Source: Stylophora pistillata (taxonomy: Eukaryota). From it: a stretch of DNA of 64,000 nt. How positions within the stretch are numbered: the first letter of the stretch is position 1; the number at the start of each line of letters is the position of its first letter. Shown piece after piece: positions 60,563 through 61,240 of the stretch. The stretch is from NCBI RefSeq assembly GCF_002571385.2, contig NW_019217845.1:351452-415451 (forward strand), in the 5' to 3' direction. The notes below the pieces were generated by a model that worked only from the letters and a program-made list of their open reading frames with translations, was not told the origin of the DNA and did no database searches. The translations under genes were made by a program, and so were the position numbers.

Positions 60563-61240
60563 TTAGTGTTCCTCGACATAAAGCAATTCATATGTTCCTA
60601 ATGGCATAGACGCATCACACCACTGACAGTTGACTATTCCAACACCACTTGCAGAACTTGAATGAACCCCACTTCCGTCCAAGCGAATGTAACAATGGGG
60701 AAATGAGTAGCAACCATTACTCTCTCGTTTAAGGAAAAATATTTCGTAACTGTGTGCAGTGAACTGACAATTTACTTGATCGCCCCCATCCGTGTCAAAA
60801 TGGCTCATTCCCTGGCTGTCCAAGCGAATGAAAACACTACTGAATAGGAAACTCTGTATCGCAACCTTGAGGTCAGTTTCCGAAGCCAGCGACGGAGGCA
60901 CCTCGACAGGAACAATGTAGAATTTCTCATGTCCCTGGTGGTTTGTACTGGCAGTTAACAGTTCCACCTCCGTGGCCAACCATTCTGTGACTCCTGAGCC
61001 GTCACAGCAAAGGTACACGTCAGGGAATGCAAAAGACCGAATGGTGCTCAACTTCAGGCATTTCATGAATTTCAGAAAGCGGTATATCATCTCAGTCGTA
61101 AATCGCGGAGCAGAGTTGGGGCAGCCGCCACAACTGTGAACGCCGAGGACGGTCCAATATCCATTGTGCCATGTGTAAACTGGGTTTCCACTTTGCCCAC
61201 CCATCGTATCATTGAAGTAAATATTTTGCTGCTGGTATTC
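60563..61240 (-). pseudogene. Decayed intronless gene: C-terminal half of a V8/glutamyl-endopeptidase-like serine protease fused to a fascin-like beta-trefoil triple repeat
   Basis: NDTMGGQSGNPV...VLGVHSCG; three repeats of (Y/F)(L/I)RLDG.G...GG..VNCQ...E.F; compensating frameshifts in repeat 1; 5' end replaced by a repeat-like sequence. Confidence 0.7.

Follow-up and report, generated by a model that had tools for sequence, protein, structure and literature searches.

The 64,000 nucleotides of Stylophora pistillata DNA analyzed here (the window) carry on the minus strand, at 61531-60563, what is almost certainly a pseudogene, namely a gene-sized duplicate of a coral gene that is transcribed and has no introns. 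This copy is in itself a case of ordinary gene decay. It belongs to a real and expressed family, apparently undescribed, of two-domain proteins of 390-440 aa, which are encoded by single open frames at five metagenome loci. The best explanation for the whole, whose chances we place modestly above even, combines this dead duplicate with a zymogen that would join a V8/BIGEP-type protease to a beta-trefoil, and with acquisition of the family from bacteria early in animal history.

Anatomy of the pseudogene and its expressed sister

The first-pass annotation had picked out the peptide motifs DTMGGQSGNPV and VLGVH, followed by three repeats of the form RLDG.G...GG..VNCQ...E. Both motifs are real and lie in one 233-codon stop-free minus-strand frame (61264-60563), and repeats 2 and 3 follow in frame with RLD(S/G), but in repeat 1 the reading is LCCDG, with GGGTVNCQYKP in a shifted frame (60971-60939). 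The pattern VNCQ[FYW] has three matches in the six frames of the window, all at the pseudogene, compared with 0.1 on average and never more than 1 across 30 shuffles. Searches with the window frame gave no match in Pfam and no informative family in NCBIfam. The gene extends past the interval originally proposed, 60563..61240, to 61531, and 61359-61235 is dispersed repeat, not protease. The neighbors were correctly named as CHCHD2 and DVL; seen from the pseudogene, the DIX exon of DVL lies beyond the 489-N gap, and among the assembled contigs and RNA data no piece reaches from the pseudogene to CHCHD2 or crosses the gap to the DIX exon, and no contig spans CHCHD2 to DVL.

Table 1. Segments of the pseudogene and other features of the window, with their positions.
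Positions	Strand	Feature	Remarks
44144-44624		Tandem peptide-like repeat	Adjoins the reverse-transcriptase fragment
44584-45432	-	Reverse-transcriptase fragment	Weak RVT_1 match
54999-56530		Expressed CHCHD2 gene
55655-55818		Palindromic, MITE-like element, 164 bp	Very high copy; in CHCHD2 intron 1
56000-56239		CHCH exon (CHCHD2)
58104-59070	+	Second, diverged CHCHD2-like gene beside the expressed one	Few spliced reads, in one of three RNA runs
58468-61560		Block with several variant DNA contigs	Summed depth above that over CHCHD2; may be multi-copy or polymorphic
60546-61562	-	Homology to the expressed sister, full extent	Contig loose ends at both coordinates
60563-61059	-	Three-repeat beta-trefoil (predicted)	Stop at 60565-60563
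61060-61219	-	C-terminal protease part	Thr190 (61207), catalytic Ser (61192), His213 (61138), GGCP cysteine, linker helix
61235-61359		Inserted fragment of ~360 bp dispersed repeat	Replaces ~15 codons
61366-61416	-	Middle piece, 17 codons, different frame	Sister residues 145-161
61416-61424	-	Deletion junction with frameshift	Sister residues 36-144 (109 codons) gone
61424-61531	-	5' piece: 13-residue leader, Glu before predicted mature N-terminus, protease start	Sister residues 1-35; early stops at 61483-61481 and 61462-61460
61563-61990		High-copy repeat directly upstream of the pseudogene	Many contig loose ends at 61563, very high summed depth
61998-62486		Gap of 489 N
62943-63104		DIX exon (DVL)

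The locus had been described as a relic, and it is one: the copy is degenerate, with stops, a deletion, an insertion and frameshifts. The 5' piece, with its two early stops, is 91.9% identical in nucleotides to the beginning of another contig of the assembly (G000:C482:1-111), which has no stops there. The catalytic His and Asp fall within the 109 lost codons, leaving the triad of the window copy incomplete; the deletion joint (61415-61424) is present in contigs of all four runs, and the window-type junction recurs in an independent contig (X3 record 13). The inserted fragment has at least 33 matches elsewhere in the genome, and all nine loci that were fetched agree with it at 86-98%. In the trefoil, repeat 1 carries two frameshifts that compensate each other (about 60976-60935), and repeat 3 has lost 5 codons. 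As contigs of another study reproduce the window sequence, one covering 61248-61606 with two differences and one gap and another covering 60415-60974 with four differences, these lesions are not assembly errors. Outside the homologous stretch the flanks differ from the sister on both sides, the loose end at 61562 being C482:112-141. A processed pseudogene is not favored; homology stops 17 nt past the stop codon, without a poly(A) run.

An intact paralog had been expected elsewhere in the genome and was found. The closest intact relative is P0349, of 400 aa, of which the window copy retains residues 1-35, 145-161 and 177-400; over this last part the window is 80% identical to P0349 and 78% identical to P0350. 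Searches of the coral's own genome with the window frame, P0004 or the window DNA returned the window only, and the search with P0349 placed its first 25 codons, stop-free, at the very start of C482 in the same assembly, indicating that the assembly breaks inside the sister gene. The 3' flank of the sister is not in the assembly.

In three raw runs of one study, stranded RNA reads fell on the sense strand of the gene at a depth of 26-87, compared with 98-154 on CHCHD2 exon 2, and dropped to near zero on the flanks. These reads derive from the sister and not from the window copy: at position 60583 the sister letter was present in 87/87, 161/161 and 88/88 sense-orientation reads, and the reads skip the repeat insert and continue into a different 3' flank. 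Among the best-supported differences, 18 of the 28 codons touched alter the residue, mostly to that of P0349. A PolyA contig from a second study has the same sister form, and its 5' loose end is again C482:112-141. The insert is missing from the sister form (joint 61221-61365), and since the same joint stands in DNA contigs, it is not a product of splicing. The absence of introns, claimed at the outset, is supported, and the gene is embedded in the host genome and expressed through the sister. One window-type contig, of depth 10, occurs in the PolyA library and may represent DNA or read-through.

On the minus strand of C482, 3.5 kb from the intact sister, is an exon of the choloylglycine hydrolase/penicillin amidase type (CBAH; L075:3505-4008, Pfam E 5e-15), with similar pieces near 6700-8900 that are apparently tandem copies; penicillin amidase is among the bacteria-derived anthozoan genes in the text available of PMC4878875.

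A V8-type protease joined to a beta-trefoil

A structure model of the family member P0070, built from 127 sequences, has a pLDDT of 94.5 and a pTM of 0.91. The protease domain matches the Bacillus-type enzyme BIGEP (1p3c) in a profile search with an E of 6e-22, the best animal protease reaching 2e-4; Foldseek and VIA both placed 1p3c/1p3e at the top for the model, and VIA aligned it to 1p3e with Z 26.7 and an rmsd of 1.9 over 198 residues. The view that the protein is V8-like and unlike animal trypsins was therefore borne out by the profile search, Foldseek and VIA, which all favor bacterial glutamyl endopeptidases. Model residue 16, which follows Glu15, superimposes on residue 1 of mature 1p3e and of 1qy6. 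The full His57-Asp102-Ser195 triad is present in 37 of the 44 animal-group proteins, both sisters included, and missing from seven; 34/44 also have His213 and Thr/Ser190, and 35/44 have Gly216. Position 194 is Gln in 37/44 and Glu in 3/44, versus the Asp of animal GDSGGP enzymes. An animal trypsin or chymotrypsin of that type was accordingly rejected, given the missing Asp194 and matches to animal proteases of 2e-4 or weaker.

Thr190, His213, the N-terminal amine and Glu-directed autoprocessing are described for glutamyl endopeptidases in the available part of PMC5508998, where His213 is common to Glu- and Gln-specific enzymes. On sequence and model, cleavage after Glu is the probable specificity of the family. 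Of the 21 members in which the motif is recognizable, 17 have a Glu just before the predicted mature start and four lack it. Leaders in the animal group are 8-36 residues long with a highest 9-residue hydropathy of 1.3, and a crude hydrophobicity scan found no evident signal peptide in the sister or most members; P0268 has a signal-like start. The suggestion of a toxin is not supported, there being neither a signal peptide nor any toxin evidence. Two cysteines, at mature position 3 and in the GGCP loop, are both present in 58 of 83 rows, both absent in 20 and discordant in five, a co-variation that kinship inflates; these two regions also carry cysteines in the Esp variant engineered to be 'N-terminus locked'.

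The family thus resembles BIGEP (1p3c/1p3e) and V8/Esp (1qy6, 4jcn) in fold (Z 26.7 and 23.9), triad, Gln/Asn in place of Asp at 194, Thr190, His213, Gly216 and the register of the mature N-terminus. It differs in being animal-encoded, in lacking an evident signal peptide or long folding propeptide and in sharing only about 24% identity, and it adds the C-terminal trefoil and a natural cysteine pair near the N-terminus and GGCP loop. The nearest named relatives of the protease are prokaryotic (Anaerolineae L013, Microcystis, Leptothoe, Microcoleus), at 38-43% identity; they share the E-x-V-C-G-x-D-x-R start, GQSGSP, YGGCPN and the lack of an obvious signal peptide, but have no trefoil, and most have a longer acidic propeptide. 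In a single case, the closest named bacterial protease has an nSTAND1-WD40 gene (L013:3-2540, minus strand) 1.4 kb away.

The C-terminal domain is predicted by the model to be a three-repeat beta-trefoil: it is all-strand with pLDDT above 90 and a three-fold repeat, one trefoil per protein, and Atlas residues 232-402 match a ricin-B-type cluster with a TM of 0.83. The PDB fold searches used the whole model, and the protease domain filled their match lists. By weak sequence similarity the trefoil is AbfB/CBM42-like. Pfam AbfB matches 26 of 44 stand-alone trefoil relatives at E 0.01, with the coral members only at E 0.05-0.07, and the CBM42 structure 3kmv matches with an E of 1e-4. The initial label 'fascin-like' does not apply, with 0/44 trefoil proteins matching Pfam Fascin at E 0.01. 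Fascin has four tandem trefoils, compared with the single one here. The repeat had also been called mainly bacterial/fungal, which on the bacterial side agrees with its being a trefoil common in bacteria. Three S-x-x-F/Y-P-x-x-x-L/I-R repeats are shared with AbfB/CBM42 (PF05270; 3kmv) and with bacterial proteins that NCBI names 'fascin domain-containing', while the GGG-x-VNCQ hairpin is peculiar to the present family. The repeats of 3kmv have RH where the family has RM/RL, so the ligand probably differs.

AbfB/CBM42 serves many enzymes as an accessory module; similarly, the trefoil described here is joined in other proteins to papain, C70, S8, phosphoesterase, tyrosinase and GH43 domains. Such fusion to many unrelated enzymes is typical of binding modules, and the trefoil is likely to bind a glycan. 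Two ENA proteins, P0262 and P0265, combine a TRAF-type zinc finger and coiled coil with six near-perfect repeats of the trefoil motif; their trefoils fall on the bacterial side of the trefoil tree, which suggests that the module was captured a second time, into an adaptor of the immune type. The P0201 cluster (199 members) with P0290 and P0295 forms an abundant stand-alone group of 175-aa trefoils in a clade of its own. Cnidarian IL-1anc, as described in the accessible part of PMC13736523, similarly has a C-terminal beta-trefoil and no classical secretion signal; it differs in its N-terminal PDZ, a trefoil spread over 3-5 exons and non-detection in sponges. Identity with IL-1anc was rejected, the family's N-terminal domain being Trypsin_2 and its gene intronless.

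Distribution and origin of the family

The family is present in stony corals, an octocoral and a demosponge. Members include Oculina patagonica KAL9981099.1 (on a 30-Mb contig), Porites evermanni CAH3179037.1 and Paramuricea clavata CAB4039132.1, and Halichondria panicea has four paralogs on a 7.0-Mb contig and another on one of 8.6 Mb. No bilaterian is named among the matches listed, seven of the best 120 having an organism name. In the protease tree (90 rows), 48 rows including all named animals form one group at a support of 94/97, and the seven rows that are named animals or the window's sister split from 17 named prokaryotes at the same value. In the trefoil tree (66 rows, with three short and four long-branch rows left out), a split with a support of 100/99 separates 21 animal-group rows from the rest. 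At its base the protease tree is poorly supported and rooted on long branches; the animal group is supported, its sister group is not. That the animal members form one group in the trees of both domains, apart from prokaryotes, favors an old origin over a recent transfer. Ten further fused proteins fall outside the animal group; their GARP/FYMINK values (0.81-1.95, versus 0.63-1.19 in the animal group) hint at a prokaryotic origin for these basal proteins, a hint too weak to count. Four protease-only proteins (P0200, P0379, P0384, P0393) are nested in the animal group and may reflect trefoil loss, truncated records or onward transfer.

Among named prokaryotes, the fusion was found in 0 of 15 GTDB loci, in a scan whose single peptide pattern would not detect P0094, P0255 and P0256, and in 0 of 30 plasmid records. 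It was likewise absent from the 301 Anaerolineae-class and 301 Myxococcota genomes sampled and from five further genomes. Viral contigs held no relative, and BFVD gave generic protease folds only. In the ESM Atlas, an Ascomycota 'serine protease' cluster (83 members, 457 aa) matches the family over both domains with a TM of 0.72-0.74 and a feature score of 0.97; this comparison is by structure only, and both trees are without the cluster.

The horizontal transfer that the first-pass annotation proposed is likely but not shown: the family is common to anthozoans and a demosponge as one group, no named prokaryote has the fusion, and the Ascomycota cluster has the same architecture. We lean, slightly, towards acquisition from bacteria early in animal history. 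Vertical descent of the fusion from an old gene of opisthokonts or eukaryotes, kept in fungi, sponges and anthozoans but missing from most other animals through loss, would need no transfer into animals. The whole-length match of the Ascomycota cluster, the single sponge-cnidarian group in both trees, the missing fused form among the named prokaryotes examined and the precedent of a GH13_1 amylase found in fungi and non-bilaterians (in the portion available of PMC7003070) all speak for it. We nevertheless give it perhaps one chance in several: in the protease domain, family members are 38-57% identical to other fused proteins and to prokaryotes, the 120 best matches of either search include no named ascomycete, the coding regions are intronless, and an Anaerolineae protein whose gene neighborhood is normal for bacteria has both the Cys pair and the GGCPN motif.

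Somewhat less probable again is repeated sideways movement, into sponges or anthozoans from bacteria or into anthozoans from sponges, of the kind proposed for other immune genes of sessile marine animals. Within the animal group, the sponge and cnidarian rows show no clean order; another fused lineage rich in paralogs (the P0093 group) and the TRAF-trefoil fusions lie on the bacterial side of the trefoil tree; and the available text of PMC8195603 raises lateral spread in marine animals. The splits from prokaryotes in the protease tree and from all other trefoils argue against repeated movement. A bacterial contaminant or chimeric join, which the first reading had raised against itself, is very improbable. 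The sequence is of bacterial type and intronless, an N gap is nearby, its GC is 0.47 (0.34-0.44 in most 2-kb windows), and two partial relatives on contigs of 1.0-1.2 kb are labelled as an Alphaproteobacteria MAG. However, a host repeat is inserted in the pseudogene, contigs from other studies run across its 3' end and its junctions, relatives sit on the megabase contigs of Oculina and Halichondria, and the sister is backed by PolyA and stranded RNA; a contaminant join is already largely refuted. The MAG label is itself a probable mis-binning, because cluster mates of these partial members include several paralogs on contigs of 0.8-1.0 Mb.

Proposed mechanism, role and significance

The most likely mechanism, judged from sequence and model, is that the sister product would be a zymogen without a signal peptide, a V8/BIGEP-type serine protease cutting after glutamate. 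Cleavage of its leader after Glu, either in trans or by self-processing, would create an N-terminus that completes the Glu-selecting S1 pocket, as in V8/BIGEP, and that would be pinned by the co-varying cysteine pair. The trefoil may gather the zymogen on a ligand, such as a microbial or damage-exposed glycan, and so lead to activation. A disulfide fits a cytosolic location poorly, and the cysteine pair argues for an oxidizing site.

Innate defense in a fast birth-and-death family is our tentative choice of role, at a little under even chances, because of the paralog arrays, the pseudo-enzymes (7/44) and the window pseudogene. A digestive or mucus role may come close behind. An enzyme that has no part in an immune switch, and that either leaves the cell despite lacking a signal peptide or acts in phagosomes, would be in keeping with steady transcription in all three RNA runs (roughly a quarter to half of the CHCHD2 depth), with a cysteine pair suited to an oxidizing compartment and with a trefoil that accompanies degradative enzymes in other proteins; we regard it as rather unlikely, since the sister and most members have no signal peptide and paralog arrays, pseudo-enzymes and a pseudogene would be more typical of conflict genes. 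More speculative, and doubtful as a whole, is the fullest form of the defense reading, in which a bacteria-derived, self-activating glutamyl endopeptidase would sense a microbial or damage glycan through its trefoil and use the N-terminal disulfide as a redox lock, forming an innate-immune switch that predates the sponge-cnidarian split and was lost in bilaterians.

V8-type glutamyl endopeptidases have been studied in bacteria and viruses (PMC5508998), and 'eukaryot' does not occur in the part of this review available. We found no description of the family in the open full-text literature; HGT candidate lists in subscription papers and in most supplements could hold one. The 41-row coral HGT table of PMC4878875 and three supplements, as far as these sources are available, list no such protease, three rows being unnamed proteins, and the accessible text of PMC3750612 and PMC7594246 does not mention the family. 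With a single exon, 400 aa, and a predicted cut site and specificity, the protein is cheap to test. The family is a clean test case for old bacterial transfer versus inheritance and loss. If the account given here is true, an expressed, multi-copy protease with its own binding domain would be a new protease class for early-animal biology, and a candidate effector for coral immunity in reef corals, octocorals and sponges.
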